Shown one piece after another: positions 20,519-61,792 of a stretch of DNA of 64,000 nucleotides (its first letter is position 1; each line of letters opens with the position of its first letter). The notes beneath the pieces are model-generated. The model saw only the letters and a list, made by a program, of their open reading frames with translations, ran no database searches and was not told the DNA's origin. Source of the stretch: Candidatus Taenariivivens baikalensis (GTDB lineage: Bacteria; Omnitrophota; Omnitrophia; Omnitrophales; Aquincolibacteriaceae). The stretch lies in NCBI GenBank assembly GCA_009691445.1, contig SICL01000002.1:63-64062 (forward strand), read 5' to 3'. Position numbers and translations under genes: made by a program.

Positions 20519-20523
20519 TATCT

Positions 20524-21513: not shown

Positions 21514-21514
21514 G

Positions 21515-23504: not shown

Positions 23505-23506
23505 TT

Positions 23507-25812: not shown

Positions 25813-25894
25813 CTGCCATCCAGCAAGAGTTGCATGAAACGGATCTGTCAGCCGGTTCGTAGGACACTTTCCAGAAAGTCGAGAAAATATTCAG

Positions 25895-41833: not shown

Positions 41834-41834
41834 T

Positions 41835-43481: not shown

Positions 43482-43482
43482 T

Positions 43483-45352: not shown

Positions 45353-45354
45353 GG

Positions 45355-45981: not shown

Positions 45982-47126
45982 TAGAGGGTTGTAAAAACCG
46001 GGATCCAGCGCCCATTTTCTTTTTTAAATAAATTTTTATTTGCCCATTGATCGAGCACAGCATCAAATTCATTTTGAGTCATCTGATAATAATCCAGATA
46101 GGTTTCAATGAATTCTTCAGGATAATGTCCATCATAAAGACGAACGAGATTGATTGCTTGGTCACGAGTCATCGCGCCGCGACGGATTTCGATTCCTGCA
46201 TCTTGGGTGGCTCTTCCAAAACCAAATTTAAGATACATCATATAAGTGTGAAGGGCATATAAAGCCTGATCATTCTGGGCAAAATTTGTAAACGTGCCGG
46301 TATTATTTTCAGTAGCCTCCTGCAAACCACAATGTTCTTTCGCCGTCAAATAGTTCTGATAAGGGTCCCAGGATTCAAAATAAGACCAGTGGGTGATTTT
46401 TAGATCCTTGCCTTTCAGTTCCCGGTCGGATGGGAATGAAAAGAAGTACAATTCAGCGTCGCTTAGGCCGCACGAGTTAAGTATCCTTTCATGGCCGCCC
46501 TCGAGATAAATCCTTTTCATGTAAGCAATGTCATAAACGGGATGATTTTTCGATTCCGAAGATCCGCCATATTCCACCTCACCATCCTCTCCATAAAACA
46601 GAAGCGGGATATTTAGATTCACCGCGAGACGGACGACGGCGGCTTGCACCGCCACTAACCAGCCATAATAGGGGAATCCTTTCTCGATAAATCCCTGACG
46701 ATTCAGGATGCGCATAACTTTTGGATTGGGATTGATCTGAATATGGTTATGCCCGCTCTCGATATAATTTCGAAGATTTTTATTCCCCAAATCGAGCGAC
46801 AAAGCAGGGGTCACAGTAATTGCCAAAGGATTCATTCCATGGTTATGCTTGAGCTGATATGAAACATAAGAGCCATCTTTTCCTCCGCTGACAGGGACGA
46901 CACAATCAAAAGTTCCTGATGAAGATTTGTACTGATTGAGGATTTCAGTCAGCTCATTTCTCCGCGAATCCCAATTAAGATTCCTTTTTTCCTCCATCCA
47001 TTGGCAGGCATTGCACCATCCCCTGTCATCAAAGGTAATGCGCGGACGGGTTGACATGTTGAGACAGTTTTTGCACCAAAAAACTTTACTGCTGGAATGA
47101 GTCATAAACTTTTCCTGATTAAGCAT
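45981..47126 (-). CDS. N-acetyl sugar amidotransferase (WbpG/PseA/LegA-like, PP-loop ATP pyrophosphatase)
   Basis: 381 aa. N-terminal CKNCLNMSTRPRITFDDRGWCNACQW zinc-ribbon and PP-loop VPVSGGKDGS. This is the hallmark of acetamidino-forming amidotransferases. Confidence 0.85.
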   Translation of the reverse strand: MLNQEKFMTHSSSKVFWCKNCLNMSTRPRITFDDRGWCNACQWMEEKRNLNWDSRRNELTEILNQYKSSSGTFDCVVPVSGGKDGSYVSYQLKHNHGMNPLAITVTPALSLDLGNKNLRNYIESGHNHIQINPNPKVMRILNRQGFIEKGFPYYGWLVAVQAAVVRLAVNLNIPLLFYGEDGEVEYGGSSESKNHPVYDIAYMKRIYLEGGHERILNSCGLSDAELYFFSFPSDRELKGKDLKITHWSYFESWDPYQNYLTAKEHCGLQEATENNTGTFTNFAQNDQALYALHTYMMYLKFGFGRATQDAGIEIRRGAMTRDQAINLVRLYDGHYPEEFIETYLDYYQMTQNEFDAVLDQWANKNLFKKENGRWIPVFTTL

Positions 47127-47147: not shown

Positions 47148-47966
47148 TTACCAAACCGTTAATCCCCCATCAACAATAAGGTTGTGCCCTGTGACATAAC
47201 TTGAGGCACCGGAAGCAAGATAGATAAGAGCACCCACCATTTCTTGAGGATGAGCCATTCGCCCTAGAGGAACACGGTCGGAATATTTCTTTTGAAACGT
47301 TTTATTTTGCCCGCTAAAGACTCCTCCAGGTGTAAGCGTATTGACGCGAATTTTATGAGGAGCCAAGTGGGTTGACAAATATTTTGTTAGAGCAATCACG
47401 CCGCCCTTTGAGGCAGAGTACACGGCGGGATTGTTAATCTCTTGATTGAGATAAAACGACCCTTGATAGGTTCGCGGATCATGTGACGAAAGGCCATAAA
47501 TGGACGCCGTTTGTATAATTGAGCCGCCTTTTTCTTGCTTTATCATTTGGCTACTGACGGCCTGCGCGACGAGGAACATTGCATCCAGATTGATCGCCAT
47601 AATTTCCCGCCATGTTTCTAGAGAGTAGCGTTCAAATTTCTCAAAAAACGCATGGGCGTCTTTTGATTTTCCGGCGGCATTATTATGGAGGATGTGAACG
47701 GTTTTAAAGGTTTTAAGGATTTGTCGGAGCATTTCGTTTACATTTTGCGGTTGTGTAATGTCGCAGCCCACGCCTAAAGCTTTTATTTTATATTTTTGAT
47801 TCAATTTTTTTGCTAGAGAAACCGCCTCTTTTTCGCGGATATCCACAATCGCCACATGAGATCCGCGGGCAGCCAAGGCTTCACAGAAATGCTTCCCTAA
47901 GATCCCGCAGCCGCCAGTGACAATGGAAGTTTTCCCTTGAAGGCTAAACAGGTCCTTAAAACTCAT
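47148..47966 (-). CDS. Short-chain dehydrogenase/reductase (PtmA-like)
   Basis: The start MSFKDLFSLQGKTSIVTGGCGILG is chosen at 47966. It has the classic SDR TGxxxGxG and YxxxK. Its position matches ptmA of the Campylobacter legionaminic acid locus. Confidence 0.75.
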   Translation of the reverse strand: MSFKDLFSLQGKTSIVTGGCGILGKHFCEALAARGSHVAIVDIREKEAVSLAKKLNQKYKIKALGVGCDITQPQNVNEMLRQILKTFKTVHILHNNAAGKSKDAHAFFEKFERYSLETWREIMAINLDAMFLVAQAVSSQMIKQEKGGSIIQTASIYGLSSHDPRTYQGSFYLNQEINNPAVYSASKGGVIALTKYLSTHLAPHKIRVNTLTPGGVFSGQNKTFQKKYSDRVPLGRMAHPQEMVGALIYLASGASSYVTGHNLIVDGGLTVW

Positions 47967-48690
47967 GGTAATTCCCCTGGTTTTGATGCTGACGATCCAT
48001 GAGAAGTTTGACCACTTCAAAATCCAGATCATGATCAATATCCACGGAACGCTCAGGCGGCATTTCGTAAAGCAATGTGTCGGAATAAAAAATAGCAGGA
48101 TTTTCAATAAAGCGATTCCGTTTCCAGACATAAATTGACGCATTCATGTCGTAACATGCTGGTGAATCTTGCCGGCGGACAACCGGTGTCGGAGTATTTT
48201 TGGAAAGACGGACAAAGCCCTCCGAATTATTTTCTACCAGATTAAAATAGGGCGAATGCCGGGATCGTGCCGCAGTGATGACGTTAGAAACTTTGCGCGA
48301 GTCAAAGAGCCGAACCGCATGATGGATATCCTGAATCGTCCTCAAAGGGGATGTGGCATCCAGATCAACGATCGTTTCGTAAGCATACTTCTTGATTTTT
48401 TCAATTTCAAGTACCGCGTGCCGGATTGCAGGAAGTTTGGATGCCGTATCAGTCGCCATTTCTTCGGGACGCTTCAGGAAGTAATCCGCTCCCCATTCGC
48501 GGCTAACCTTGAGAATATCATCTGAATCACTACTGACAACAACGGCATCAAAAAGTTTTGAATCTTTAGCTTGTTGAAGTGTGTGAGCGATCAAGGGTTT
48601 CCCTTGAATCAGCATAATGTTTTTATTTTTGAGGCCTTTGGAACCGCCTCGTGCACAGATCGTGCAAATTCGCTTTATCGGTGTATCCAC
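47956..48690 (-). CDS. CMP-nonulosonate (acylneuraminate/legionaminate) cytidylyltransferase, NeuA/LegF/PtmB family
   Basis: 244 aa. ICARGGSKGLKNKN is the NeuA-family signature. Confidence 0.85.
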   Translation of the reverse strand: MDTPIKRICTICARGGSKGLKNKNIMLIQGKPLIAHTLQQAKDSKLFDAVVVSSDSDDILKVSREWGADYFLKRPEEMATDTASKLPAIRHAVLEIEKIKKYAYETIVDLDATSPLRTIQDIHHAVRLFDSRKVSNVITAARSRHSPYFNLVENNSEGFVRLSKNTPTPVVRRQDSPACYDMNASIYVWKRNRFIENPAIFYSDTLLYEMPPERSVDIDHDLDFEVVKLLMDRQHQNQGNYHEF

Positions 48691-49586
48691 TTGAAGTCCT
48701 TTGCTGCTTCTTCAGCCGCTTCAATCATTTTTACGACATCTATTCCCTCTTCAAAAGAGCATAGCGATTCTGTGTTTCCGGAGAGCACGGCTTCGTGCTG
48801 CCGAAGATAGGTGTGATTTTTATCCATGGGATACTGCTCAATCTGATCATCGGTCTCAAGTGTATTCTGGACTAAATCGGCTTTGAACGTCTGATTGTCT
48901 GTTTGGATGATAATCTCACGCCGGGATTTTCTATCCAGGTAGTTCATTTGTAAAGAGACCAAAGGACATCGCCTTGTTTTTAGCAGGAGAGAATAAGCAT
49001 CGTCACTATCTAGGGTGTTATCGCTGAAGCGCCCTCCGACTGCCGTTAAAGCCTGCCAACCCCCAAGAAGCCAGTTCAAATAGTCCAGTTCATGACTTAA
49101 ATCCCGAAGGACACCCCCGCCGCCTGCTCGGGTTGCGGAGTATCCCAATCGCCCATCAGGCCTCCAGGTGGAAATATGTTTTCCGACGTAGGCTTGAACT
49201 TGAATAATATTTTTAGAGGCGGCAAGGATCATCTTGAGTTTTTGAAGAATGGGATGAAAGCGCAGGTTATAGGCTGTATAAATATAAGTGATCGAATGCT
49301 TTGGGATTGTCACCCTATTGGCAAAAAGGGGCTTTTCGATTAAAACCTTTCCCCTAAAGGACGTATCCGCTAAGGTTTTGAATGAATCAAAATGAGAGCG
49401 GGTATCATTTGCGATCACGACATAATCCGGATTAAAATTCTTGAGACACTCACCGAGCGAAGTAAATAAAGAATCATCATCAGAGTGGTGACGACTGATC
49501 ACTGCGACGTGACAGCCAAGTTCTTTAAGGCAGTTTGCATGACGCACTCCAATGGATCCGTATCCAACCACAGCGGCTTTGATCAT
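48675..49586 (-). CDS. Gfo/Idh/MocA-family NAD(P) oxidoreductase (PtmF-like)
   Basis: 303 aa. N-terminal Rossmann AVVGYGSIGVRH and a Gfo/Idh/MocA C-terminal domain. Confidence 0.75.
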   Translation of the reverse strand: MIKAAVVGYGSIGVRHANCLKELGCHVAVISRHHSDDDSLFTSLGECLKNFNPDYVVIANDTRSHFDSFKTLADTSFRGKVLIEKPLFANRVTIPKHSITYIYTAYNLRFHPILQKLKMILAASKNIIQVQAYVGKHISTWRPDGRLGYSATRAGGGGVLRDLSHELDYLNWLLGGWQALTAVGGRFSDNTLDSDDAYSLLLKTRRCPLVSLQMNYLDRKSRREIIIQTDNQTFKADLVQNTLETDDQIEQYPMDKNHTYLRQHEAVLSGNTESLCSFEEGIDVVKMIEAAEEAAKDFKWIHR

Positions 49587-49589
49587 CGA

Positions 49590-50663
49590 TTAATCTTTGA
49601 CGGAGGGTGCGGGTGCTTTAAAGATTTCCGCAAACTCACCATTCGCACGGACGAGATCCTCAACGCGGCCGACATCAAGCCAATATTCGCGCAGTGGAAA
49701 TGCCGCTGTTTCTTTTTTGTTTTGGATTAAGATTTCAAACAAATTTGGCATATCGAAATACTCGTTTTGAGGAATCAAAGAAATAGCGTCTGGTTCAAAG
49801 GCGTAAATTCCGGCATTGACAAAAAATTTGTGAATAGGTTTTTCGTCGATAGCTTGAATCCGTTGACGGTCGAGCTGAACGACTCCAAAGGGAACCTGGA
49901 AGTCATATTCCCGGACGCACATGGTGCCGAGGGCTTCATGTTCCCTGTGGAATTGGAGAAGCTGCCGAAAATTAATTTTTGTCAACAAATCACCATTCAT
50001 GACAATAAAGGTTTGTTTCGGGGTTTCAGGAAGCAGCGCAAGAGCACCGGCAGTTCCCCGGCGTTCATGTTCATGGAGATAAGTGATATCGGCTCCCCAC
50101 TTGCTACCATTTCCAAAATAATGACGAACCATTTCATCCTTATAATGAACTGAAATAAAAAAACGATGAAACCCCTGTTCAATAAAATTTTGCAGAATGG
50201 TTTCTAAAATAGGCTTGTTTCCCACCGACAAAAGGGGTTTTGGGCAATCATCGGTGAGAGGCCGCAGGCGAGTTCCAAGTCCCCCCGCCATTAAAATGAT
50301 CCAATTGTGGACGGGATCGACTTTTAATAATTCATCAATGATTTTCACATCAATAATCTGGCCTTCAGAGTTAAGAATTGGAAGTTGATGAATTTCACGC
50401 TTTTGCATTGTTTCCCGCGCTAAAATTGGATCATCGCTCATCGCAAGAACGGCCGGGTTATGTCGCATAATTGACTCAACGGGTGCGGAAAGAGGAACTC
50501 CCTTAAGCATGCCCCGGCGAACATCCCCATCCGTGACCGTGCCGCAGAGTTTATTCATGGCATCCACGACAAAAGCGATCTGAATGGAGCCGGCGTCAAT
50601 TTTAGCGATAGCATCGGCAATGGATGCCCCGCTAGCAACAAGTGCTTTCTTCCAGTCCGGCAT
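49590..50663 (-). CDS. CBS-domain plus nucleotidyltransferase fusion (PtmE-like sugar-1-phosphate guanylyl/nucleotidyltransferase)
   Basis: The start MPDWKKAL is chosen at 50663. It has an N-terminal CBS pair, then ILMAGGLGTRLRPLTDDCPKPLL NTP-transferase motifs. The architecture matches PtmE of the GDP-GlcNAc-based legionaminic acid pathway. Confidence 0.75.
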   Translation of the reverse strand: MPDWKKALVASGASIADAIAKIDAGSIQIAFVVDAMNKLCGTVTDGDVRRGMLKGVPLSAPVESIMRHNPAVLAMSDDPILARETMQKREIHQLPILNSEGQIIDVKIIDELLKVDPVHNWIILMAGGLGTRLRPLTDDCPKPLLSVGNKPILETILQNFIEQGFHRFFISVHYKDEMVRHYFGNGSKWGADITYLHEHERRGTAGALALLPETPKQTFIVMNGDLLTKINFRQLLQFHREHEALGTMCVREYDFQVPFGVVQLDRQRIQAIDEKPIHKFFVNAGIYAFEPDAISLIPQNEYFDMPNLFEILIQNKKETAAFPLREYWLDVGRVEDLVRANGEFAEIFKAPAPSVKD

Positions 50664-51292
50664 TAAGCAGTCCTCTTCATTAAATTTTGTGATGCTGATG
50701 AAGCAATGTTGCGAAGGATCGTTGAACCTGCTTTGATAAGGGTGTTGGGGCCGATGTGCCTTTCCTGAATGATCACAGAACCGCTTCCGATGAGCGAGTT
50801 TTCCCCAACAATGACTCCACCGCATAAAGTAACCCCAGGTGCAATATGAACATGAGGCCCAATCTTGCAATCATGATCGATCGAGGATCGGGTATTAATA
50901 ATGGAATTTTCCCGAATAATGGTTCCAGGCTGAACAACGGTTCCGGCCATGATCTGTACCCCCTCACCTATTTGGACATCCGAAGCAATCACGGAAGAAG
51001 GATGGACAACGGAAGCAAAGTTATAACCCAAGGATTTAAAATAAGTAAAAATTCTTTTGCGATGGTCGCTGACCCTAATGGTGCCAAGCCCATTGACTAA
51101 ACGAATTTTTGAATTTGTAAATTCAAGAACGGCGTTATCATCACCCAGGACACTTAATCCTGAAATTTTTTCACCGGCTTTATGTGAAGGGTCAGTGATC
51201 CCAATTATTCTTTCTTTGCGTAGTTTTAACGTCTCAATCAAGACCCTCGCATGCCCCCCACCCCCAAGAATGATAATCGGTGGTTGTTTCAT
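50663..51292 (-). CDS. PglD/NeuD-family hexapeptide-repeat sugar N-acetyltransferase (LegH-like)
   Basis: The start MKQPPIIILGGGGHARVLIE is chosen at 51292. It has an N-terminal Rossmann-like segment plus a left-handed beta-helix (IGEGVQIMAGTVV...GENSLIGSGSVI). Confidence 0.8.
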   Translation of the reverse strand: MKQPPIIILGGGGHARVLIETLKLRKERIIGITDPSHKAGEKISGLSVLGDDNAVLEFTNSKIRLVNGLGTIRVSDHRKRIFTYFKSLGYNFASVVHPSSVIASDVQIGEGVQIMAGTVVQPGTIIRENSIINTRSSIDHDCKIGPHVHIAPGVTLCGGVIVGENSLIGSGSVIIQERHIGPNTLIKAGSTILRNIASSASQNLMKRTA

Positions 51293-52362
51293 AAAGTCAC
51301 CAAGTCGTCTTTGCAAAAGTTTTTGAGAGAAGGACGTCCCAGGAGTTCCCAATATTTATAGGGACTGAGACCCAAGCCGGGTCTTTTGATCGCAAGATTA
51401 GATGATGAAAACAAATCCCCTTTTTTAATCGAGGAGGATGCCACAATGCTTTTTCGGATGGCCGATATGTTTTTAGTTTCACACAAAGAGGGTTTTTTTT
51501 GACCGTCGCCTAGGGCGTATTCAACAGCGCGTATTCCATCGATCATTTGTTTGAGTTCATTAGGTTCAAGAGAAGCAAAGTGATCCGGTCCGGAAAGTCT
51601 TCGATCCAGTGTAAAGTGTTTCTCAATAATGGTTGTTCCCAGAGCGGCTGCGGCGATGGGCACTGCACCTCCCAAGGAATGATCGGACAGTCCGGTGGAA
51701 AGGCTAAAGATTTTTTGCAAAGTCATCATGGCACGTAAATTAATGGCGTGATAAGGAGCTGGATACTCCGTGGTGCATTGAAGCAAAGTCACTTTTTCTT
51801 TCAGAAGCCCCTTTCCTTCCCGAGAATCGTAATAAGATTTAAACTTTCGTTCTGATGGGTCTTCCTTGGCTGAAGAAAGAAATCCAAAGGCTAGCACCGA
51901 GAGTGCTTTTTTAATTTCCTGAAGGGTTGACATTCCCGTTGATAAAATAATAGGCAACTTTTTTCGGGCGACGTGAAGTAAGAACGGAGCGTTTGTAATT
52001 TCTCCTGATGAGATTTTAAAACGCTTAACCCCAAGTTCATATAAAAAGTCTGCACTGGCCTCATCAAAAGGCGTTGAGAGAAATTCGATTTTTTGCTTTG
52101 TGCATTCCCGGAATAAAGCTTGATGACTTCGATCCGTTAACTCCAGGCGCTTAATCATATTCCATTGCGATGAACCCCTAGTCTGTTTCATTTGGTACGA
52201 TGCTTTGGGGGTTGTTTTGGTCAGAAGCGTCTCAGCTCGGAAAGTTTGAAACTTGACCGCGTCTGCGCCCGATGATTTTGCGCAACGCACCATTTCAAGG
52301 GCTCTTTCCACATTCCCATTATGATTGACGCCGGCCTCGGCAATAACATATACGTGTTTCAT
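51289..52362 (-). CDS. Nonulosonic acid synthase (NeuB/LegI/PseI family) with C-terminal SAF domain
   Basis: 357 aa. Starts MKHVYVIAEAGVNHNGNVERALEMV, has the SGADAVKFQTF motif, and ends in an antifreeze-like domain. Confidence 0.9.
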   Translation of the reverse strand: MKHVYVIAEAGVNHNGNVERALEMVRCAKSSGADAVKFQTFRAETLLTKTTPKASYQMKQTRGSSQWNMIKRLELTDRSHQALFRECTKQKIEFLSTPFDEASADFLYELGVKRFKISSGEITNAPFLLHVARKKLPIILSTGMSTLQEIKKALSVLAFGFLSSAKEDPSERKFKSYYDSREGKGLLKEKVTLLQCTTEYPAPYHAINLRAMMTLQKIFSLSTGLSDHSLGGAVPIAAAALGTTIIEKHFTLDRRLSGPDHFASLEPNELKQMIDGIRAVEYALGDGQKKPSLCETKNISAIRKSIVASSSIKKGDLFSSSNLAIKRPGLGLSPYKYWELLGRPSLKNFCKDDLVTL

Positions 52363-53027
52363 CGGGTCTCACGAAGAATCATAAACGCTTCAGCTGCTTT
52401 AACACCGCATTCGGATCCTCGAAGCAGCGCGAGCGCTTTCATTGTATCGGCAGAACGAGGAAACGGATGTTTTCCCCATTCACTTTGATACGTTTTCATG
52501 GCGTTTATTTTTTTTTGCAGGAACGAGGTGATATTGATATATAAATTAGGAACAAATGATTTTTGAGTCGGATCAAGCTTGAAACCTGTTTCAGAAAGGG
52601 TTTCATAGGTATAGATGTTTTTAACCGAAGGAGCACGAAACCATTTTGCTGCAGTCAGCACCGCGTCAAATGCAGCCCGGTGATCACTATGAGCGTCTCC
52701 CGGGAAAGGAACAAATAAGGTATCCGGTTTGATTTCATTGATAACTTTTTTGATTTTAAAGATCAAATCTGATTTTGGAATCTGATCGAGGGAACAAGGA
52801 GAGAATCCGAGATCCCAGGATGAATTAAATCGATAGAATTTTTCGATGGCTTTAATTTCTTTCTCCCGTCGTGAGATTGAAGAAACGGAATAGCCTGAAC
52901 GCGGACTCATTTGTGTAACGCGAATCCAATGGATTCTTTTTCCTTCTGCCCGAAGCCGAAAAAGAGTTCCTCCGCAGCCAAGAGTTTCATCATCGGGATG
53001 AGGAGCGATAACTACAATATTTTTCAT
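52359..53027 (-). CDS. PIG-L/LmbE-family N-deacetylase
   Basis: The start MKNIVVIAPHPDDETLGCGGT is chosen at 53027. AHPDDE is the family zinc-binding signature. Confidence 0.8.
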   Translation of the reverse strand: MKNIVVIAPHPDDETLGCGGTLFRLRAEGKRIHWIRVTQMSPRSGYSVSSISRREKEIKAIEKFYRFNSSWDLGFSPCSLDQIPKSDLIFKIKKVINEIKPDTLFVPFPGDAHSDHRAAFDAVLTAAKWFRAPSVKNIYTYETLSETGFKLDPTQKSFVPNLYINITSFLQKKINAMKTYQSEWGKHPFPRSADTMKALALLRGSECGVKAAEAFMILRETR

Positions 53028-53923
53028 AGATACTCTCCCGCTTTCGGGCATTGAGGAATGTCGTGGCTGAGGATTTGCAGAGCGGATGCGCCGCCGCATT
53101 TTATGGTGAAATGCTTTTTGGAAGCATTAAGAATTTTACCGGGCTCGCAATTATCCTTTAAATTTGTAACTACTTGAGATCTCCAGACAGCAAATTTCTT
53201 TCCGTTGTATCGGCACACAGCTCCAGGATAAGGTTTGGCCAGTGCTCGGATGAGATTGTAAATCGTTTCGGCGGACATTCTCCAATCAATTGCACCGTCC
53301 CCTTCCGATCGTTTTCTCCAAGTATTTCCGTGATCAGCAGGTTGTTTCCCACGTTTAAATTCCCCAGAAGCGAGTGCTAAGCTAAAAGTGGGTATTTGCT
53401 GTTTTGCAATTTTAAGGAGACGCTGATAGAGATCATGCGCATAATCGGTCTTTGAGATTTTTACATTTTTTTGGTCAAGAATATCCCCTGTGTCCGCTTT
53501 CTCATCCATGAAAAAGAAAGTCGATGCGGTTTGTTTTAAGCCGAGGGCTAAAGCCCAGATAATCGGATGCCGTCCTCGATTATAGGGTAGTTTGGCAGGA
53601 TGGTATCCAATGACCCCCAGGCGCGGAATTTCCAAAATTGTTTTTTGCAGCAACCACGACCATCCGAAACAATAAATCACATCAGGGCATATTTCATGAA
53701 GCCATTTCACAAGATTTTCTTCGTTGTGCTGGTCTGCAAGGAAATAAGGGATTTTATGGCGGGCTGCAACGGGCTGAAGTGAAGTGAAATCGCTGTTAAA
53801 ACTGGATGCTTTACGTGTGACAACTCCGGCCACATGATAATGCTTATTTTTTTGCTTCAGAAGATCTCGGAGGCATGACTCGCTGAATTGGACACAACCC
53901 ATAAAAACTATCTTCATCGGCAA
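53024..53923 (-). CDS. Formyltransferase (Fmt/ArnA-N-like, N10-formyl-THF-dependent sugar N-formyltransferase candidate)
   Basis: 299 aa. The formyl_trans_N fold with GVIGYHPAKLPYNRGRHP (HxSLLPxxRG-like catalytic region). Confidence 0.75.
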   Translation of the reverse strand: MPMKIVFMGCVQFSESCLRDLLKQKNKHYHVAGVVTRKASSFNSDFTSLQPVAARHKIPYFLADQHNEENLVKWLHEICPDVIYCFGWSWLLQKTILEIPRLGVIGYHPAKLPYNRGRHPIIWALALGLKQTASTFFFMDEKADTGDILDQKNVKISKTDYAHDLYQRLLKIAKQQIPTFSLALASGEFKRGKQPADHGNTWRKRSEGDGAIDWRMSAETIYNLIRALAKPYPGAVCRYNGKKFAVWRSQVVTNLKDNCEPGKILNASKKHFTIKCGGASALQILSHDIPQCPKAGEYL

Positions 53924-55077
53924 CCTGCCGGAACGTAAAATTTTTTCTTGAGCAAATCCGCACCAAGAGGAAAATATTTTATTTCCTTTTTAATCATCAT
54001 GGATGCCCGGCCCTTGCCGTAAAGGAAATCGGGTTTTACTTTTTTTGATCGTATTAAACCCGATTGAATCGATTGTTTAATTTTTCCTGAATTTTCAGGG
54101 CAATCGATGACCGTTTTAGCGCGCAATCTTCCTTTTTGCCGGTCACCGATATTGATAGAGATTTTCCCCATAAAAGGCGCTTCAATAATTCCGCTGGATG
54201 AATTTCCAACCAGAAGAGTGGCGTGGTGCATCAGGCTTAAGTAGATTTCTTGACCAAGCGACGTGAAAGCAAAAGTACGAGATTTTTTTTCCACATACTC
54301 ATCTATCAATTGATTAATCGAAAGGCCCAGGGGGTCTGTATTGCTTTTAGTAATAATAATGGTCCCTCGCCGAAAATGATTTAGGGCTTTAAAGAGTTCC
54401 TGGGCGGAACGTAACGACTTCTTCCCTTCCAAAGTGACGGGATGATAAGTGACGAGAAAAAGAGGGCTGTGGATTTTTATTTTCAGACAACTTTCAAGTT
54501 CCTGGAGAGTAAGCGCTTTCGTCTTCTTGATGTGGTCAAGTCCCGGAGCCCCATAATTAAATACCCGGTTGGGTTCCTCACCCATTTGGATGATGTGTTT
54601 TCGATAAGTTTCCGAGGCGGCAAAATGAAGATGAGCCATTTTTGTGATCGAATGGCGAATGGCTTCATCGATAAGCCCCTCGGTGGATTCTCCCCCGTGA
54701 ATATGGGCGATGGGGATACGGGCAATCATTGCCGCTTGAGCCGCTGCAAATATTTCATAGCGGTCCCCTAAAATAACGAGCAGATCCGGATTTAATTTTT
54801 TGAGTCCTTTCGCGAAGGAATCCACTCCAATGCCCAGGGATTTACTGACAGCTTCAGGGGAATCGGTTGCTAAGGGCATCCTGGCCTTGTAGGCGATTGA
54901 AAAGCCATCTTTTTCAATCTTTTCAACCGTGCGACCAAATTGTTTTAAGAGATGCGCGGCACCCGCGATCACCTGGAGTTTCAAAGAAGAGTCATTCTGG
55001 ATTTCTTTCATAATCCAATAGAGATGTCCATAATCAGCGCGTGATCCCGTGACGACGCAAATCTTTCTCTTTTTCAT
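53914..55077 (-). CDS. UDP/GDP-N-acetylglucosamine 2-epimerase, hydrolysing (NeuC/LegG family)
   Basis: 387 aa. Starts ICVVTGSRADYGHL, has HIHGGE, and matches NeuC throughout. Confidence 0.85.
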   Translation of the reverse strand: MKKRKICVVTGSRADYGHLYWIMKEIQNDSSLKLQVIAGAAHLLKQFGRTVEKIEKDGFSIAYKARMPLATDSPEAVSKSLGIGVDSFAKGLKKLNPDLLVILGDRYEIFAAAQAAMIARIPIAHIHGGESTEGLIDEAIRHSITKMAHLHFAASETYRKHIIQMGEEPNRVFNYGAPGLDHIKKTKALTLQELESCLKIKIHSPLFLVTYHPVTLEGKKSLRSAQELFKALNHFRRGTIIITKSNTDPLGLSINQLIDEYVEKKSRTFAFTSLGQEIYLSLMHHATLLVGNSSSGIIEAPFMGKISINIGDRQKGRLRAKTVIDCPENSGKIKQSIQSGLIRSKKVKPDFLYGKGRASMMIKKEIKYFPLGADLLKKKFYVPAGCR

Positions 55078-56249
55078 AGAAGAACACCGCTTGGGATATT
55101 AATAAGACGTGTTTCAATATCTTCGGCTGTCGATAAATCCATTCTCGGACATTCCGAGTACATGGGAAGGCGGTGCATGAGTGTCCAGCACGGACGTGTA
55201 CTCATTCCATTTTGATTTGTGATTTCAAGCAGCGGATTGCGCATTGACGCTTGATCGGCATCAAGAAGAAGTGCATTGAGCCAGTAATTGCTTTGAGATT
55301 CCTTAGGTTCGGTAAAAAAATGGATTCCGGATAAGCCTTCAAAAGCTTTTTGATAGCGTCCTGCAAGCTCTCGTTTATTTTTTAGAAAAAGAGGTATTTG
55401 TTCGAGCTGGGCACAACCAAGGGCTGCATTGATATTAGGAAGGCGGTAATTAAAACCTATTTCATCATGGGCGAAAAAATAGCCGTGAGGAATCCGAGCC
55501 GTTGTGGTGATATGTTTCAATTTTTGTGCGAGTTTTTCATTGTTTGTCAGAATGGCCCCGCCGCCTCCGGTGGTGATGATTTTGTTTCCATTAAAACTTA
55601 AAATCGTCAGATCGCCCCAGCTTCCGGTGTGCTTTCCCTGGTAATAAGAGCCAAGGGATTCTGCGGCATCTTCGATAAAAATAAGATTGTATTTTTTACA
55701 GAGCGTCTGAATGAGATCCGCCCGAAAGGGATGACCGAAGATATGAACACCGATTAAAGCTTTGATCGGATTTCCAGTCTTACGATTAACAAGCTGGCCA
55801 TTCTTAATCTGAGCAATAGTTTCAAGATACTGATCGAGTTTTTCCGGATCAACACCCAGGGTTTTTTGTTCCGAGTCAATCAAATGAGGAATGGCTCCCA
55901 AATAGCTTACCGCATTCGCTGTGGCGACAAAGGTGAGGGTGGGAATCAAGACTTCGTCGTTTGGAGCAATTCCCGAAATTTTGAGTGCCGCATGGAGTGC
56001 CGCCGTTCCATTAACAACTGCCACGGCCTTTTTTATTCCCGTAAATTGGACAAGATCATTTTCAAACCGATCTACATAAGTTCCAACCGATGAAACCCAC
56101 CCCGTGTCCAAACATTCTTTTACGTAATCCCACTCCTTGCCCGCAAAATGGGGTGCGTGAAGAGGGACGGGTAAAGATGATTCAGGAATACAACTTTTGA
56201 TTTTACGAAAAACCATTTCAAGATCTAATTCGATTTTAAGTTTTGTCAT
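55074..56249 (-). CDS. DegT-family aminotransferase (LegC/PglE-like, NDP-4-keto-6-deoxy-sugar 4-aminotransferase)
   Basis: 391 aa. AVAVVNGTAALHAAL, FNGNKIITTGGGG and DegT fold. Confidence 0.85.
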   Translation of the reverse strand: MTKLKIELDLEMVFRKIKSCIPESSLPVPLHAPHFAGKEWDYVKECLDTGWVSSVGTYVDRFENDLVQFTGIKKAVAVVNGTAALHAALKISGIAPNDEVLIPTLTFVATANAVSYLGAIPHLIDSEQKTLGVDPEKLDQYLETIAQIKNGQLVNRKTGNPIKALIGVHIFGHPFRADLIQTLCKKYNLIFIEDAAESLGSYYQGKHTGSWGDLTILSFNGNKIITTGGGGAILTNNEKLAQKLKHITTTARIPHGYFFAHDEIGFNYRLPNINAALGCAQLEQIPLFLKNKRELAGRYQKAFEGLSGIHFFTEPKESQSNYWLNALLLDADQASMRNPLLEITNQNGMSTRPCWTLMHRLPMYSECPRMDLSTAEDIETRLINIPSGVLL

Positions 56250-56252
56250 GAG

Positions 56253-57263
56253 TTAAAGATTGTAAAGATACGATTTGTATTGAGCTAAATTATTCCGATC
56301 AGAAAACCAATGAATGGTTTCCTGAAGCCCTTGAATTAAACCTTCTTTGCCTTCCGATTGCGGTTTCCACCCGGTCAAACGCTGTACCTTCGTCGCGTCT
56401 GCACAAAGACGTTTCACCTCACTTTTTAAGGGGCGCAAACGTTCGGCATCATTTTCCAGTTCAAGGGGCGTATGCATAAGTTCTGAAATAAGTTGCGCAA
56501 GATCCCCGATAGAAATTTCAAAGCCGGTCCCCAGATTCAAAATTTCACCGGTTGTGGCAGGCGATTCTGCGGCTGCTATAAACCCACGAACGGTATCCAA
56601 GACGAAATTAAAATCACGCGTAGGATGAAGGGCCCCGAGTTTGATTTTCTGTTTCCCATTTGCAAGCTGGGTAATGATCGTGGGGATTACTGCCCTCGCA
56701 GATTGCCGGGGGCCATAGGTATTGAAGGGTCTTACGATGGTGACAGGTAGATCAAAGGATTCATGAAATGACATGGCAATCTGATCTGCGCCTATTTTTG
56801 TGGCGGCATACGGTGATTGTCCATGCAAAGGATGTTTTTCCGTGATGGGAACCGTTTGCGCGCTTCCGTAAACCTCGCTTGTTGAGGTGTGGATGAATTT
56901 TTTAATACCCATGTCTCGCGCAGCCTGCAGTAAGTTGAGTGTTCCCTTGATGTTGGTGTCCACATAGGCATCGGGAGAATGATAGGAAAATGGAATTCCG
57001 ATAAGGGCGGCTAAATGGAAGATATAGTCACAGCCGTGAAGCGCTGTCCTTACTCCGTGAGGATCTCGAATGTCCCCCATAAAGATTTCGATTTTGTCTT
57101 GAATTTCCGGCTCTAAATGGTCTAACCAGCCCCAACTATTGAACGAGTTATAAAAAACGAAGGCACGGATATCACATCCGGAACGGACTAATGCTTCTGT
57201 TAAATGGGACCCGATAAAGCCGTCCGCACCGGTCACCAGTATTTTTGAATTTTTGAGATTCAA
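56253..57263 (-). CDS. NAD-dependent NDP-sugar 4,6-dehydratase/epimerase (LegB-like extended SDR)
   Basis: 336 aa. VTGADGFIGSHL, YAATK, and dTDP-glucose-4,6-dehydratase-like layout. It is the first biosynthetic step gene, adjacent to the aminotransferase. Confidence 0.75.
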   Translation of the reverse strand: MNLKNSKILVTGADGFIGSHLTEALVRSGCDIRAFVFYNSFNSWGWLDHLEPEIQDKIEIFMGDIRDPHGVRTALHGCDYIFHLAALIGIPFSYHSPDAYVDTNIKGTLNLLQAARDMGIKKFIHTSTSEVYGSAQTVPITEKHPLHGQSPYAATKIGADQIAMSFHESFDLPVTIVRPFNTYGPRQSARAVIPTIITQLANGKQKIKLGALHPTRDFNFVLDTVRGFIAAAESPATTGEILNLGTGFEISIGDLAQLISELMHTPLELENDAERLRPLKSEVKRLCADATKVQRLTGWKPQSEGKEGLIQGLQETIHWFSDRNNLAQYKSYLYNL

Positions 57264-57278
57264 GAAACCCTCCCGGAC

Positions 57279-57512
57279 TTAATCTTCGTCATGGATCCAT
57301 CGCCGGGCTTTGTTGTAAGCAATCCCGACTTTATTTTCCAATTTGGGTGAAAGGATACGTAAAAGTTCTTTTCCCATAATGCGGTATTGTTTTCCCACTT
57401 TAGCGGAGCGAATCAGGCCTTTTTTAATCATGCGCGCAAGTGTGCTGGTACTGACTTTGAGGATTTCTTCAGTTTCGGCTAAGGTATATACTTCGTTTTC
57501 TCTAATTTCCAT
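57279..57512 (-). CDS. Helix-turn-helix DNA-binding protein, excisionase/MerR-like (HTH_17) family
   Basis: The start MEIRENEVYTLAETEEILKVSTSTLARMIKKGLIRSAKVGKQYRI is about 77 aa. This is a classic excisionase-family HTH. Confidence 0.7.
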   Translation of the reverse strand: MEIRENEVYTLAETEEILKVSTSTLARMIKKGLIRSAKVGKQYRIMGKELLRILSPKLENKVGIAYNKARRWIHDED

Positions 57513-57617
57513 AGGTGCTCCATGTGGTAAGGTGCCACATAGTACCATTAGCCCTATTTAAGTGTCAATACCTGTCAAAATATAACATCAAGAGAGAGCA
57601 GGTAAATAGCCGTCCCA

Positions 57618-59756
57618 TTAATTCGAAAGGGTGTAGCGGACAAAGTCGTCGTGGGAGGCGTCTTTGGAGTCGGTGAAGTTGGACTCAGTGGAAATGATCT
57701 TCCGGAACAGGCTTTCAACATTGCTCACTCGAGTCACAATCTTACTCAATGCATTGGCATGAATTCCGTAGCGCAAGAATTGATCGCGGCGAACCGCTAG
57801 TTGGTCCTCCGTAAAAAGAAAGTCATAGCGGATCGTATGATCGCGCATAAACCGCGAAAGCGGGGTTCCCTCCGGGCTTTTCATCCAGCCCACGATATCT
57901 ACATTGCATTCAAGGCTTTTCGGCGTCAAATCCCCTTCATGATTAAGAACGCCTTTTAGTTTCATTTTGACAAACTGATTGAGAAGGTTGATCTCTTCTT
58001 CCGTTTCCTTCCATTTTTCCCGGGAAAGTTTTTCATGTGCGATCTGAATACAGATTTGCATGAGGTAATCCGCCCAGGCGTCGGCAGCAAAAGCAAGACT
58101 CATGGCCTTGTATTTATAAATAACATTGCCGCCAATTTCCCCATGATACAGCGCTTTGTAGTTAGCATCCTTTTCGTAGAAATGCAGCATTTCCTCGGCG
58201 GAGTTCCAAAGCTCTCCTTTGGTCTCAGTAATAAAACCTTCAAAAATTTTCTTTACGTCTCCTGGAGCTGAGTCCATCGCGCCGTAAACACGTAGGATAA
58301 AATCAAAAAGTTTGATATCAAACGACGCCGCATAACGAAAAAATTCATTAAAAGGACGGCTATTGTGCAGCACTTCCACCATCATGGCGAGCCCTCGGAT
58401 CCAGAGGTAGTCCTCAAAGGACATGTCTTTATTGGCGATTCCCACTTCTTCATAATCAAAAATTCTTTTGCCACCATACTCGCCAAAGTTGAGGGGAACA
58501 ATGCGGTACTTGCCCTTGATTTGAAATTCATTTCTGTACTCAGGCTCCTGAAAAGGGGTTCCGTGCAGAAGCATTAAGGAGTATGTACAGACCATGCTGA
58601 CTCCCGCTTCAAGGATATTTTGAACACCGCGTGTAAAAGTCTCCTTCGTTTCTCCCGGCAATCCCACGATTAGTTCGCCCTTGGTTGATCGCCCGCGTTC
58701 CGTCAGGGTTTTATTCACCGCCACATAGTGATCGAGTTTGATATTGGCACGCTTGATATTTTCAAGAACTTGCGGATCCATAGACTGGACCGACATGTTG
58801 ACGGAGAAAGTATTTCCCAGCATTTGAGTGATTTCAATGACATGCTCTTTTTTATTCTTTCCTGTGGTTGCCATGATTTGAAGAGGCCATCCATACTGAG
58901 TCTGAGCGGTTAAAAGTTCCTGGCAAATTTCTTTATCGCGGACATACATGCCAAAATTCGTATCGGCGATGTGGAGGTTTTTAATGCCGTGCTTTTTCAT
59001 GTAAGGCCCGACATAACGGATTTCATCGCGGATTCTTTCAAACGAAAACATGTTGATATGATTGAAGTATTGATTCCCGGTATGGCAGAACGTGCAGGCA
59101 AAAGGACATCCGCGATTGGTTTCCAAAAACGGTGTCAGCCTTCCGTCAAAAAAATGATCCAAAAGCCCAGAAAGGTACGGTGACGGTATATCGTCCAGTG
59201 ACTTCAATCGTTCGGGAGGCATTCCTTTAAGGAGCAGGGGCTCGGAACTGTTACGACTTTCAGGGACAATAAAGACGCAGCCATCGACGGGTTTTTCAAA
59301 TACCTTTTTCCGGTTCCCGCGGCTTTCAAGGATCCTTCCGACTAGGTTAGAAAAAGCAATCTCCCCTTCAAGTTCTACAAAAACATCGGTATTGGGATAC
59401 TGAAGCATGAATCCAAGTTGTAATTCGCTCCGGTGCGGGAAATTAGTCCCTCCCATGGAGGTAATGACATCGGGGTTTGCTTGCTTGGCAATGCCGGCGA
59501 CATGCTCAGAAAGGCGGCTGTTCCAGGAGTAATTACTTAAGGCGATAACATCCGGCGGATTATTTTGAATGGCTTCAATGACTGATGCAGGGTATTTGAA
59601 TAGCGAGACTTCAATATCTTCTCCGTAGATTTTCTTTGCATAAGCCGCAATAAATCCAATATTAATGGGAATGGTATCAGAAACTAAAACAAGCGTGTCG
59701 TGCGTCAGATCACACAGATAGATTTTTAATTTATCCTTTAAAGCCTTTTGTATCAT
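57618..59756 (-). CDS. B12-binding radical SAM enzyme (class B radical SAM, methyltransferase-like) with an ~260-aa C-terminal extension
   Basis: 712 aa. N-terminal cobalamin-binding Rossmann-like domain (DVIALSNYSWNS...). CPFACTFC radical SAM cysteine triad at roughly residues 217-224. Confidence 0.8.
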   Translation of the reverse strand: MIQKALKDKLKIYLCDLTHDTLVLVSDTIPINIGFIAAYAKKIYGEDIEVSLFKYPASVIEAIQNNPPDVIALSNYSWNSRLSEHVAGIAKQANPDVITSMGGTNFPHRSELQLGFMLQYPNTDVFVELEGEIAFSNLVGRILESRGNRKKVFEKPVDGCVFIVPESRNSSEPLLLKGMPPERLKSLDDIPSPYLSGLLDHFFDGRLTPFLETNRGCPFACTFCHTGNQYFNHINMFSFERIRDEIRYVGPYMKKHGIKNLHIADTNFGMYVRDKEICQELLTAQTQYGWPLQIMATTGKNKKEHVIEITQMLGNTFSVNMSVQSMDPQVLENIKRANIKLDHYVAVNKTLTERGRSTKGELIVGLPGETKETFTRGVQNILEAGVSMVCTYSLMLLHGTPFQEPEYRNEFQIKGKYRIVPLNFGEYGGKRIFDYEEVGIANKDMSFEDYLWIRGLAMMVEVLHNSRPFNEFFRYAASFDIKLFDFILRVYGAMDSAPGDVKKIFEGFITETKGELWNSAEEMLHFYEKDANYKALYHGEIGGNVIYKYKAMSLAFAADAWADYLMQICIQIAHEKLSREKWKETEEEINLLNQFVKMKLKGVLNHEGDLTPKSLECNVDIVGWMKSPEGTPLSRFMRDHTIRYDFLFTEDQLAVRRDQFLRYGIHANALSKIVTRVSNVESLFRKIISTESNFTDSKDASHDDFVRYTLSN

Positions 59757-59877: not shown

Positions 59878-60822
59878 TCATGATTGAGTTTTGAGATACC
59901 AATCAATGGTATTCTTAAGGCCATCCGCGAGTGCTGTTTTTGCTTTGAAGCCAAAAAAATGTTCTGCGCGTGAAATATCAACACATCTCCGCGGCTGCCC
60001 ATTAGGCTTGGAATCGTCCCATTCGATATCGCCTTGAAATCCTGTCATTTTAACAATCATTTCTGTGACTTGACGGATTGAAATTTCCTGGCCGGTTCCC
60101 AGGTTTACGGGTTCTTTTCCGTTATAGTGAAGCAAGCCAAGGACAATTCCTTCAGCCGCATCCTCAGCATAAAAAAATTCACGTGTGGGTGAACCATCGC
60201 CCCAGCAGATAATTTTGTTATCTCCTTGTTTTTTAGCCTGGATGCATTTTCGAATAATTGCAGGAATGACATGCGAAGTATGAGGATCAAAATTATCCCT
60301 AGGTCCATACATATTCACCGGCATCAAATAAATACTGTTCAGACCGTATTGTTCCCGGTAAGTTTGAGCTTGAACGAGTAAAAGTTTTTTGGCAATCCCG
60401 TAGGGGGCATTTGTTTCTTCTGGATAGCCATTCCAGAGATCTTCTTCCTTGAAAGGAACCGGGCAGAATTTCGGATAGGAGCATATGGTTCCAAGGATCA
60501 AGAGTTTTTCTACCGGCACATGGCGGCAGGATTCGATCAGTTGAGATCCCATCATCAGATTTTCATAAAGAAATTTTCCGGGATTGACCTGATTGGCTCC
60601 GATACCTCCGACACTCCCTGCGGCATGAATGATATAGTCAGGACGCTGATCTTTAAGGAGGCGAACAACCGCTTCTTTTTCGATTAGATTGTAGTCTTTG
60701 CTGCGGGGTACAAAGATTTTTTTCGCGCCTTTTTCTCGAAGCTTTTCCACAATAAAGCTTCCCAAAAAACCAGCCCCACCCGTCACTACAATCACTTTAT
60801 CTTTTAAATCTGGGGCACTCAT
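59878..60822 (-). CDS. fcl: GDP-L-fucose synthase-like NDP-4-keto-6-deoxyhexose 3,5-epimerase/4-reductase (Fcl/WcaG family)
   Basis: The start [25 protein letters not shown] is chosen at 60822. It has Fcl-type motifs ([27 protein letters not shown]). Confidence 0.8.
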
Positions 60823-60832
60823 CGGGACATCC

Positions 60833-61792
60833 TTAGCGTGAGCGAAGTTTTTTGACCTGCTCTTCAATCCAGGGATAGGTGATCGCAATGCCGTTCTTAA
60901 GCTTAAATTGCGCCTGCCATCCGGTTCGATAAATTTTTTCATTACTAAAATTGCGGGAAAGAACACCCACGGGACCGTCGACAAATTTTTTCTTTATTTT
61001 TTTCTTGGCTATTTCAGCAACGATGTCGACCAAGTCGCTCACCGTCAGATATTCAGGATTTCCAATATTAGCGGGCCCTTCCACCTGGGATTGCATTAAG
61101 CGATAGATTCCGTCCACCATGTCATCGACGTAGGTGTAGGATCGAACCGCCGTGCCGTCACCCCAAATTTCAATGGCTCCCCCGTTTTCCGCTTCAGCAA
61201 CTTTCCGGCAGATAGCGGCCGGGGCTTTCTCGCGTCCTCCGTGCCAGGTCCCTTCGGGGCCATAACAATTCTGAAAGCGAGCAATCCGGATCACCATACC
61301 GTGCTTCCGTCCAAAAGCCAAAGCCATTCGTTCCGCATAAAGTTTTTCCCAACCGTACTCATTATCTGGAAGTGCGGGATAAGCATCCTCTTCCTTAAGC
61401 TCGGGAGCACCCGGTTTCATGTCGCGGTAGACGCAGGCCGAAGAAGAAAAAAAATAACGTTTAATTTTTTTTTCCGCAGCGCCAGCTGTCATATTGCTAT
61501 TGATCAAAGCATTATGACGCATGATATCGCATTCCGCCGAATGAATGAAACCCATCCCGCCCATATCGGCTGCTAAATTAAAAACTTCGTCAAATCCTTG
61601 AGGATCAGATAAAGCTTTCCGACACTGTTCCATGTCCCGCAAATCAAAGATCTGGAAATCATCGGCTTGGGTGGGAGAATATTCTGGACTTTTGATATCG
61701 ACTCCGCGAACCCAATAGCCTTCACGCTTCAGACGTTTGACCAAGTGATGGGCGATGAATCCCCCGGCACCGGTTACAAGCGCGCGTCTCAT
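60833..61792 (-). CDS. GDP-mannose 3,5-epimerase-like (GME family) extended SDR
   Basis: 319 aa. [19 protein letters not shown] and [28 protein letters not shown] correspond to my recollection of plant GME blocks ([46 protein letters not shown]). It is not Gmd-like. Confidence 0.7.

Follow-up and report, generated by a model that had tools for sequence, protein, structure and literature searches.

What does a radical S-adenosylmethionine (SAM) enzyme that depends on cobalamin do among the genes of a bacterial surface polysaccharide? The question is raised by a 64,000-nucleotide stretch of DNA (the window) from Candidatus Taenariivivens baikalensis, a member of the Omnitrophota (contig SICL01000002.1), in which an open reading frame (ORF) of 712 amino acids encodes such an enzyme beside genes of sugar biosynthesis. 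An earlier note on this DNA had likened the enzyme to GenK, Fom3 and TsrM and, from two GDP-sugar enzymes resembling Fcl and GME encoded next to it, had suggested a C-methylated or radically epimerised deoxyhexose as its product. Our analysis retains the enzyme class and the idea of radical sugar tailoring, and replaces the partner pathway. We think it rather probable, though well short of certain, that the enzyme would act as a radical C-methylase tailoring a legionaminic acid (Leg)-type nonulosonic acid (NulO), or its GDP- or CMP-linked precursor, and that it represents a subfamily dedicated to the biosynthesis of such sugars. Nonulosonic acids, among them sialic, legionaminic and pseudaminic (Pse) acid, cap bacterial surfaces and flagella, and shape phage and immune recognition. 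The tailoring known so far for NulOs consists of acyl, amidino, O-methyl and O-acetyl groups, linked through N or O.

Domains, fold and active site of the enzyme

The gene of the radical SAM enzyme and its parts are located as follows.

57618..59756, minus strand: ORF with ATG start, 712 amino acids; cobalamin-dependent radical SAM enzyme of the TokK/CysS structural class
59343..59690, minus strand: N-terminal, Rossmann-type cobalamin-binding domain, residues 23-138, including W78 (Pfam PF02310, 38.5 bits, cutoff 32.1)
58635..59120, minus strand: radical SAM core, residues 213-374 (Pfam PF04055, 54.2 bits, cutoff 29.5)
59085-59108, minus strand: [4Fe-4S] cluster motif C217-x3-C221-x2-C224, by direct translation
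57687..58514, minus strand: C-terminal domain, about residues 415-690, predicted to have the C-terminal substrate-binding fold of TokK/CysS

A metagenome-assembled genome (MAG) encodes an identical protein, recorded under the title 'radical SAM protein [Candidatus Omnitrophica bacterium]', and more than 100 full-length homologs with 54-70% identity were found in metagenomes and MAGs of many phyla; the ORF is therefore a conserved gene and no chance reading frame. Alignment columns of 40 homologs have a mean identity of 66%, with the C-terminal region conserved as well. To judge from this conservation, the gene is real and under selection. On viral contigs, relatives were found only at 34% identity or less. 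The segment 59079-59120 (minus strand) translates to TNRGCPFACTFCHT, which contains CPFACTFC, and therefore the CxxxCxxC triad consists of C217, C221 and C224, all invariant in 40 of 40 homologs. The ORF list, the Pfam search, in which both PF02310 and PF04055 exceeded their cutoffs, and the translation agree with the earlier note on the 712-residue ORF, its B12-binding domain and its CPFACTFC motif, and the two domains and the motif bear out its assignment to the class B (cobalamin-binding) radical SAM enzymes.

Past about residue 405 Pfam gave no assignment, which leaves a C-terminal region of about 300 amino acids, as the earlier note had observed in speaking of a long unassigned extension. 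An AlphaFold2 model built from the 40-sequence alignment reached a mean predicted local distance difference test (pLDDT) score of 88.2 and a predicted template modeling (pTM) score of 0.88, with the C-terminal blocks mostly at pLDDT 88-98. In Foldseek, this model matched TokK with template modeling (TM) scores of 0.72 (query-normalised) and 0.77 (target) over about 708 alignment columns, and CysS with 0.67/0.75 over the full length, while the query-normalised scores were 0.38-0.46 for OxsB, TsrM and MgmA and about 0.4 for AprD4. Since the match to TokK and CysS spans the full length, the C-terminal extension is a third domain of TokK/CysS type. In the model, the enzyme has the three-domain fold with the large C-terminal domain of TokK, and its cobalamin domain superposes on those of TokK and CysS. 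In the structures of these two iterative cobalamin-dependent C-methylases, the third domain contributes to the substrate channel. Searches at the sequence level gave the same relatives: TokK (4e-47) and CysS (1e-36) were the only strong matches in the PDB, and the best NCBIfam match was the KedN5 family NF033712 (212.4 bits, next family 58 bits). The likeness to GenK, Fom3 and TsrM thus stands for the enzyme class and falls for the closest relatives, which are TokK, CysS and the KedN5 family; references for GenK and Fom3 did not turn up in the libraries searched, and a TsrM-type model scored only 33 bits.

The cofactor environment can be followed to single residues. W78 aligns with W76 of TokK and W75 of CysS, the lower-axial Trp that lies beneath the corrin, and all 40 of 40 homologs keep it; the TokK paper states that other well-characterised cobalamin-dependent methylases do not conserve this Trp. 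Cobalamin binding is predicted from the domain match and from the alignment of W78. Beyond the residues shared with TokK and CysS, there is an invariant strand motif specific to the family (T298-G-K300-N301-x-K303), and twelve near-invariant basic residues were found in the C-terminal domain over the 40 homologs.

Legionaminic-type genes beside the enzyme in this and other genomes

Directly downstream of the enzyme gene and on the same strand, the gene content predicts a full legionaminic-acid-type NulO pathway, in which LegB, LegC, NeuC, NeuB, the NeuD-type acetyltransferase and WbuX all exceeded curated cutoffs.

57279..57548, minus strand: small HTH_17/excisionase-type DNA-binding protein, 89 amino acids, between the radical SAM gene and legB (Pfam 45.5 bits, TIGR01764 32.9 bits)
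56253..57263, minus strand: LegB, NAD-dependent 4,6-dehydratase of the GDP-GlcNAc pathway (TIGR04180, 514 bits, cutoff 475)
55074..56249, minus strand: LegC-family aminotransferase (TIGR04181, 535 bits, cutoff 420)
53914..55077, minus strand: NeuC/LegG-type hydrolysing 2-epimerase (TIGR03568, 447 bits, cutoff 236)
53024..53923, minus strand: formyltransferase, N-formylation of an amino sugar or NulO (Pfam Formyl_trans_N and Formyl_trans_C; NF005414, 184 bits, below cutoff)
52359..53099, minus strand: PIG-L family de-N-acetylase (Pfam PF02585, 78 bits)
51289..52362, minus strand: NeuB/LegI-type nonulosonic acid synthase (TIGR03569, 454 bits, cutoff 400)
50663..51352, minus strand: NeuD/PglD/LegH-type N-acetyltransferase (TIGR03570, 204 bits, cutoff 161; PglD_N)
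49590..50870, minus strand: PtmE-like protein, CBS and sugar-1-phosphate nucleotidyltransferase (Pfam NTP_transferase, CBS; mannose-1-phosphate guanylyltransferase-like, 139 bits)
48675..49586, minus strand: PtmF-like GFO/IDH/MocA oxidoreductase (Pfam)
47956..48690, minus strand: CMP-NulO synthetase, LegF/PseF-like cytidylyltransferase (Pfam CTP_transf_3; PseF model, 131 bits, below cutoff)
47148..48143, minus strand: PtmA-like short-chain dehydrogenase (Pfam adh_short_C2)
44534..47126, minus strand: WbuX N-acetyl sugar amidotransferase, HisH and WbuZ/HisF-like protein, the acetamidino system (TIGR03573, 357 bits, cutoff 203; HisH 208 bits; WbuZ 235 bits, below cutoff 300)

The order of the PtmE- and PtmF-like genes agrees with that of the Campylobacter ptm genes. 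The PtmA-like protein is 50-60% identical to short-chain dehydrogenases/reductases (SDRs) of other NulO loci that contain the radical SAM enzyme.

The association recurs in other genomes. Loci around homologs of the enzyme from public genomes and metagenomes were searched with the neighboring proteins of the window, and were counted after deduplication if they had at least 8 kb of total flank; NeuB, NeuC, CMP-transferase or WbuX within 10 kb was taken as a NulO-specific gene.

Enzyme identity 49% or more: 18 loci, 15 with a NulO-specific gene within 10 kb, 12 with NeuB
Enzyme identity 34-41%: 24 loci, 13 with a NulO-specific gene within 10 kb, 13 with NeuB
Enzyme identity below 34%: 27 loci, 1 with a NulO-specific gene within 10 kb, 1 with NeuB

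A further co-localisation, beyond the counted loci, was seen on contig P0076. The loci belong to unrelated hosts, namely Sulfuritalea, Deltaproteobacteria, SAR324, Nitrospiraceae, Magnetovibrio, Elusimicrobia, Nitrospinota, Omnitrophota, Pelagibacterales and Terriglobia, and the enzyme gene frequently lies within the NulO operon itself, as in a Deltaproteobacteria locus (NeuC, radical SAM enzyme, PIG-L, HisH, HisF), on a Magnetovibrio-like contig (LegC, radical SAM enzyme, CMP-transferase) and in locus L086 (radical SAM enzyme, PtmF, CMP-transferase, SDR, NeuC, NeuB). Among distant relatives, 17 of 28 loci carry an NDP-sugar SDR or an aminotransferase, and therefore the wider family looks glycan-associated and the closer subfamily NulO-specific. 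The earlier note had named conserved neighborhoods with non-glycan genes in other genomes as an outcome that would speak against it; the loci found are glycan loci.

The genes upstream of the enzyme, from which the GDP-deoxyhexose idea came, behave differently.

59878..61792, minus strand: Fcl-like SDR (59878-60984; NF047922, 303 bits, cutoff 500) and a second NAD-epimerase, upstream of the radical SAM gene

The Fcl-like gene lies 121 bp from the start of the radical SAM gene, and the latter does sit between the helix-turn-helix protein and the Fcl-like SDR, all on the minus strand, as the earlier note had it. Adjacency to the Fcl/GME-like pair was tried as a functional link and rejected, as the pair is not conserved over 84 loci (only 21-28% cross-hits to other SDRs). 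The conserved partner is the NulO pathway, and a GDP-deoxyhexose deduced from these neighbors is not borne out. The glycan context as such was seen correctly: the window is a surface-polysaccharide locus, which also encodes an initiating sugar transferase, a Wzy-like protein, a Wzx-like flippase, glycosyltransferases, MBOAT/AlgX O-acetylation genes and a carbamoyltransferase. As listed, the Fcl-like ORF, with a TTG start, shares 152 bp with the epimerase gene upstream and is probably too long; Pfam matches it only from residue 65 on, which makes the ATG at residue 55 (MSAPDL...) the more likely start.

Some features of the downstream genes are of interest in themselves. The PIG-L de-N-acetylase and the formyltransferase are inserted between NeuC and NeuB (52359-53923, minus strand). 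The same deacetylase/formyltransferase arrangement is described for the Leg cluster of Candidatus Kuenenia stuttgartiensis, which makes CMP-NulOs carrying one free amine and one N-formyl group, and by analogy the arrangement predicts an N-formyl or free-amine NulO for this locus. The HTH_17 protein is conserved (69% identity) only in one other NulO locus of the Omnitrophota, L035; its start is likely the second Met (MEIRENE...), downstream of a promoter-like TTGACA-18-TACTAT (57568-57539). A promoter and terminator scan of the window gave counts at chance level, and therefore we make no claims on operon boundaries. An Rfam scan of the window detected no RNA family at all, cobalamin and SAM riboswitches included.

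Many NulO clusters with the enzyme hold one to three extra B12-binding radical SAM genes, which are unrelated or distant paralogs.

L003, 12116-14047: extra B12-binding/radical SAM gene
L086, 1534-3111 and 19566-21158: extra B12-binding/radical SAM genes
L087, 13121-15082: extra B12-binding/radical SAM gene
L009, 6-1883: extra B12-binding/radical SAM gene

L003 and L087 also carry genes for radical SAM enzymes with a SPASM domain, and a Magnetovibrio-type cluster is flanked by two TokK-like enzymes with a mutual identity of 30%. This suggests extensive radical tailoring of NulOs among environmental bacteria. The 643-residue B12-binding radical SAM protein encoded adjacently in Sulfuritalea was considered as an ortholog and rejected (24% identity over the N-terminal half only).

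The proposed reaction and its alternatives

From the homology to TokK and CysS and from the neighborhoods, we infer methyl transfer as the chemistry, and a NulO or a GDP- or CMP-linked precursor as the substrate. By analogy with these two enzymes the reaction would follow a ping-pong cycle, in which one SAM would methylate cob(I)alamin and a second, cleaved reductively at the [4Fe-4S] cluster, would yield a 5'-deoxyadenosyl radical; an unactivated sp3 carbon of the sugar would lose a hydrogen to this radical, and the resulting substrate radical would capture the methyl group of methylcobalamin. As product we would expect a Leg-type NulO with one C-methyl group or possibly several, which would be CMP-activated and then built into the Wzx/Wzy surface polysaccharide encoded by the window. 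What is predicted is a modified nine-carbon ulosonic acid, and the branched deoxyhexose of the earlier note is abandoned. Candidate sites would be the methyl group at C9 of the 9-deoxy sugar (giving a ten-carbon backbone), the methyl group of N-acetyl or acetimidoyl, or another backbone carbon; characterised members of the TokK/CysS clade extend a methyl or methylene group stepwise. GDP-linked intermediates may also serve as substrates, because the Leg pathway starts from GDP-GlcNAc.

Several observations weigh against this assignment. The active-site Trp of TokK, ThnK and CysS (TokK W215, CysS W206) is replaced by Thr226, which stands directly after the third cluster cysteine in a C-H-T-G motif and is kept in 39 of 40 homologs. 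The Arg280 that binds the substrate (carboxylate) in TokK and the gate residue W271 of CysS correspond to Met295, and the CysS gate as a whole (W271/L272/S273) to M295/A296/T297. These exchanges make for a different pocket, so that the chemistry of TokK and CysS is not simply transferable; as far as alignments can tell, the scaffold and the cofactor environment are those of TokK and CysS and the substrate is different. The match to NF033712 does not reach its cutoff of 700 bits, and aligned only profile positions 14-390 of 624. The substrates known for the TokK/CysS clade are pantetheine-linked aromatic or beta-lactam compounds and not sugars. ThnL, which we take to belong to the carbapenem pathway, is a member of the same clade, and a review files it under 'other or unknown transformations'. 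The immediate neighbor of the enzyme varies by locus (NeuC, NeuB, LegC, PtmF or WbuX), so that gene order does not reveal the pathway step or the attacked carbon. Finally, three close orthologs have no NulO genes nearby: in L013 the ortholog borders an island, in L015, from Pelagibacter, two DegT aminotransferases and a family 2 glycosyltransferase (GT2) are present, and in L085 the region is scrambled by transposases and adjoins a DegT fragment. Two of the three thus stand at a contig edge or in a transposon-scrambled island. These exceptions do not contradict a glycan role.

Two of these loci have further features. In L085 (6973-14210), an integrase, an HTH_17 gene, three transposases and a truncated DegT share an island with the ortholog (59% identity), which suggests that the radical SAM gene, or the NulO cluster, is subject to horizontal transfer and decay. 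In L015 (7864-9810), from a Pelagibacter single-cell genome, a gene for a TonB-dependent receptor stands directly upstream of the ortholog, and this receptor could be a corrinoid importer. To our knowledge, SAR11 is generally held not to use cobalamin, and a B12-dependent enzyme there would be worthy of attention.

Alternatives differ in whether they change the target, the chemistry or the pathway. That the enzyme extends the N-acyl group instead of the sugar backbone, turning N-acetyl or acetimidoyl into propionyl, propionimidoyl or branched homologs, is possible, although we would not put it forward as the probable outcome. TokK first methylates the alpha carbon of an amide carbonyl and next the methyl group just added, and CysS extends a methyl group stepwise; a PglD-type N-acetyltransferase is nearly always present at the loci, and the acetamidino genes (WbuX, HisH, HisF) adjoin or neighbor the enzyme gene in 6 of 18 close loci, at a distance of 51-604 bp in L001, L019 and L087. 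However, WbuX is not within 10 kb in most close loci, and a literature search yielded no NulO with a propionyl or isobutyryl group. We regard as unlikely a non-methylating radical reaction on the NulO or its precursor, such as C-S or C-C bond formation, rearrangement, dehydration or epimerisation. It would fit the replacement of the TokK/CysS active-site Trp by Thr226 and the other pocket differences, and several NulO clusters with multiple paralogs of B12-binding radical SAM enzymes suggest varied chemistry; the review also names ThnL, BchE, OxsB and others as B12-radical SAM enzymes with other reactions. The matched characterised relatives (TokK, CysS and the KedN5 family) are nevertheless all methylases, and none of the 40 homologs departs from the lower-axial Trp environment that typifies TokK and CysS. 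For the radical epimerisation offered by the earlier note, no specific support was found.

The other two alternatives concern the pathway. C-methylation or radical epimerisation of a GDP-deoxyhexose (fucose- or colitose-like) made by the Fcl/GME-like enzymes, leading to a branched-chain deoxyhexose, would explain why the Fcl-like SDR and the second epimerase lie so close upstream on the same strand, and the wider family often occurs near NDP-sugar SDRs. Yet the Fcl-like protein scores below its equivalog cutoff, neither upstream gene is conserved beside orthologs whereas NulO genes are, and no Gmd-type partner adjoins the pair, which together make this reading quite improbable. A function outside sugar metabolism, as a lipid, tetrapyrrole or peptide methylase (HpnP/HpnR, BchE or RiPP type, the last standing for ribosomally synthesised and post-translationally modified peptides) that merely lies beside a glycan locus, is largely refuted and hardly credible. 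The enzyme does give weak generic matches to many class B families, but the scores (BchE 32.6 bits, cutoff 481; HpnR 23.3, cutoff 650; HpnJ 40.7, cutoff 578; RiPP methylase model 43) stand against cutoffs of 280-650 bits, the linkage to NulO genes recurs across phyla, and the window contains no precursor peptide, hopanoid or bacteriochlorophyll genes. The earlier note had named a BchE-like or hopanoid-methylase-like result as the outcome that would overturn its view; those models scored 23-41 bits, and the C-terminal domain proved to be of TokK/CysS type.

If a Leg-type NulO is C-methylated as we favor, higher-carbon sugars come into view. Tentatively, the subfamily might make higher-carbon ulosonic acids by extending the C9 methyl group of a Leg/Pse-type sugar, or the C6 methyl group of a hexose precursor, possibly iteratively, to CMP-activated products with ten or more carbons (C10 and above). 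In Magnetospirillum gryphiswaldense, CMP-sugars were detected by mass spectrometry at m/z 679.1983, 693.2139 and 707.2296 (spacing 14.016), with a backbone marker ion of m/z 311.10, not 297.09, and with cleavage of four backbone carbons, not three, in the third stage of fragmentation (MS3). The reports on these C10 ulosonic acids propose no enzyme or biosynthetic explanation. C-methyl extension of the Leg/Pse backbone by an enzyme of this type would account for C10 products, which makes it a concrete candidate for their origin. Among the best 120 relatives of the window enzyme or of its Magnetovibrio ortholog there were no Magnetospirillum proteins, and a bait search with the second paralog gave one homolog, from Magnetospirillum sp. 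UT-4 (32% identity), in a Wzy/GT2 polysaccharide locus without NeuB or NeuC within 10 kb; the link to the C10 sugars is therefore unconfirmed. In the UT-4 locus, a split transketolase lies two genes downstream of the TokK-like radical SAM gene, after an epimerase (L168, 13112-14832).

Further sugar genes and comparison with known systems

Other parts of the window hold further sugar genes. On the plus strand, 19742-27624 encodes a separate NDP-hexose pathway with a nucleotidyltransferase, a 4,6-dehydratase-like SDR, an epimerase and an FkbM-type methyltransferase, together with a 460-residue DegT/RfbH-like enzyme, a GT2 and a split transketolase whose N- and C-terminal halves are separate genes; its product may be a branched or two-carbon-extended sugar. 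The minus-strand block 38521-43526 encodes an HMGL-like aldolase (563 amino acids), an LdpA-like 4Fe-4S protein, a HAD phosphatase, an HpcH/HpaI class II pyruvate aldolase and a KdsB-like cytidylyltransferase (255.7 bits, cutoff 255), and its predicted gene products suggest a second route to a CMP-activated 3-deoxy-2-ulosonic acid, one that does without NeuB. A comparable set (HpcH/HAD/CTP_transf_3) is placed close to the ortholog of the radical SAM enzyme in the Nitrospinota locus L087 (434-2617), and besides L087 a tblastn search of the aldolase/HAD/KdsB-like module against related loci found no co-occurrence. Two ORFs that look conserved, 43483-44532 (minus strand, 349 amino acids) and 61892-62629 (minus strand, 245 amino acids), gave no Pfam, NCBIfam or PDB sequence match. 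The 349-residue protein has relatives with 28-36% identity in three other loci of the enzyme (L001, L007 and L008), and could be a NulO transferase or another tailoring enzyme.

A dedicated and widespread subfamily of B12-radical SAM enzymes in NulO clusters predicts tailoring of NulOs by C-C bond formation, and a sugar class that is chemically undescribed so far. Chemistry of the TokK/CysS type would then reach from antibiotic pathways into primary cell-surface glycobiology, in lineages that include abundant uncultured Omnitrophota, Pelagibacterales, SAR324, Nitrospinota and Acidobacteriota, and the surface-glycan structure of these organisms would depend on cobalamin. The finding would gain sharply if C-methylated or chain-extended NulOs were demonstrated.

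Among known systems, TokK and ThnK, the iterative methylases of carbapenem C6 (PDB 7KDX, 7KDY), share with the enzyme the cobalamin-binding Rossmann domain, the (beta/alpha)6 core of radical SAM enzymes, the large C-terminal domain, the CxxxCxxC motif and the Trp beneath the corrin (TokK W76, W78 here), and TokK is the best match in both PDB sequence and structure. In the structural alignment the identity to TokK is about 22%, and Trp215 and Arg280 are exchanged for Thr226 and Met295. TokK and ThnK belong to carbapenem clusters, whereas the present enzyme stands at a nonulosonic acid operon, and a pantetheinylated substrate is not evident here: no nonribosomal peptide synthetase (NRPS), polyketide synthase, carrier-protein or beta-lactam genes were found in the window and the related loci, where the context is NulO and glycan biosynthesis. 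CysS and the KedN5 family, which iteratively extend a methoxy group to branched alkoxy groups, have the same full-length fold, with W75 of CysS equivalent to W78; the gate residues differ, and the clusters are of NRPS or enediyne type, in contrast to primary surface-glycan biosynthesis here. The enzyme thus departs from TokK, CysS and KedN5 in three features, namely the curated cutoff, the active-site Trp and the context of pantetheinylated secondary metabolites, and for this reason it is filed as a separate NulO-associated subfamily.

GenK, GenD1 and Fom3 come conceptually closest to the proposed function, the radical C-methylation of a carbohydrate or a cytidylylated substrate. They were not recovered as close relatives in our searches, and serve antibiotic pathways, not nonulosonic acid pathways; according to the TokK paper, they have no lower-axial Trp of TokK type. 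The Leg pathway of Campylobacter jejuni (LegB/C/H/G/I/F, PtmA/E/F and PtmG/H) has the same gene set as the downstream operon, in which an acetamidino system is present too. In C. jejuni, a conventional methyltransferase tailors Leg by N-methylating the acetimidoyl group, and the pathway as described has no radical SAM enzyme, unlike the present locus. The functionally assigned B12-radical SAM enzymes in a 2026 review include none acting on ulosonic acids, and a full-text literature search gave no report tying radical SAM or cobalamin enzymes to the biosynthesis of legionaminic, pseudaminic, nonulosonic or sialic acid (the matches obtained, on HutW, on SPASM enzymes of C. fetus and a cyanophage KDO paper, were unrelated). 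Set beside these systems, the subfamily is a credible and apparently undescribed family of tailoring enzymes for sialic-acid-like sugars, found mostly in uncultured lineages.

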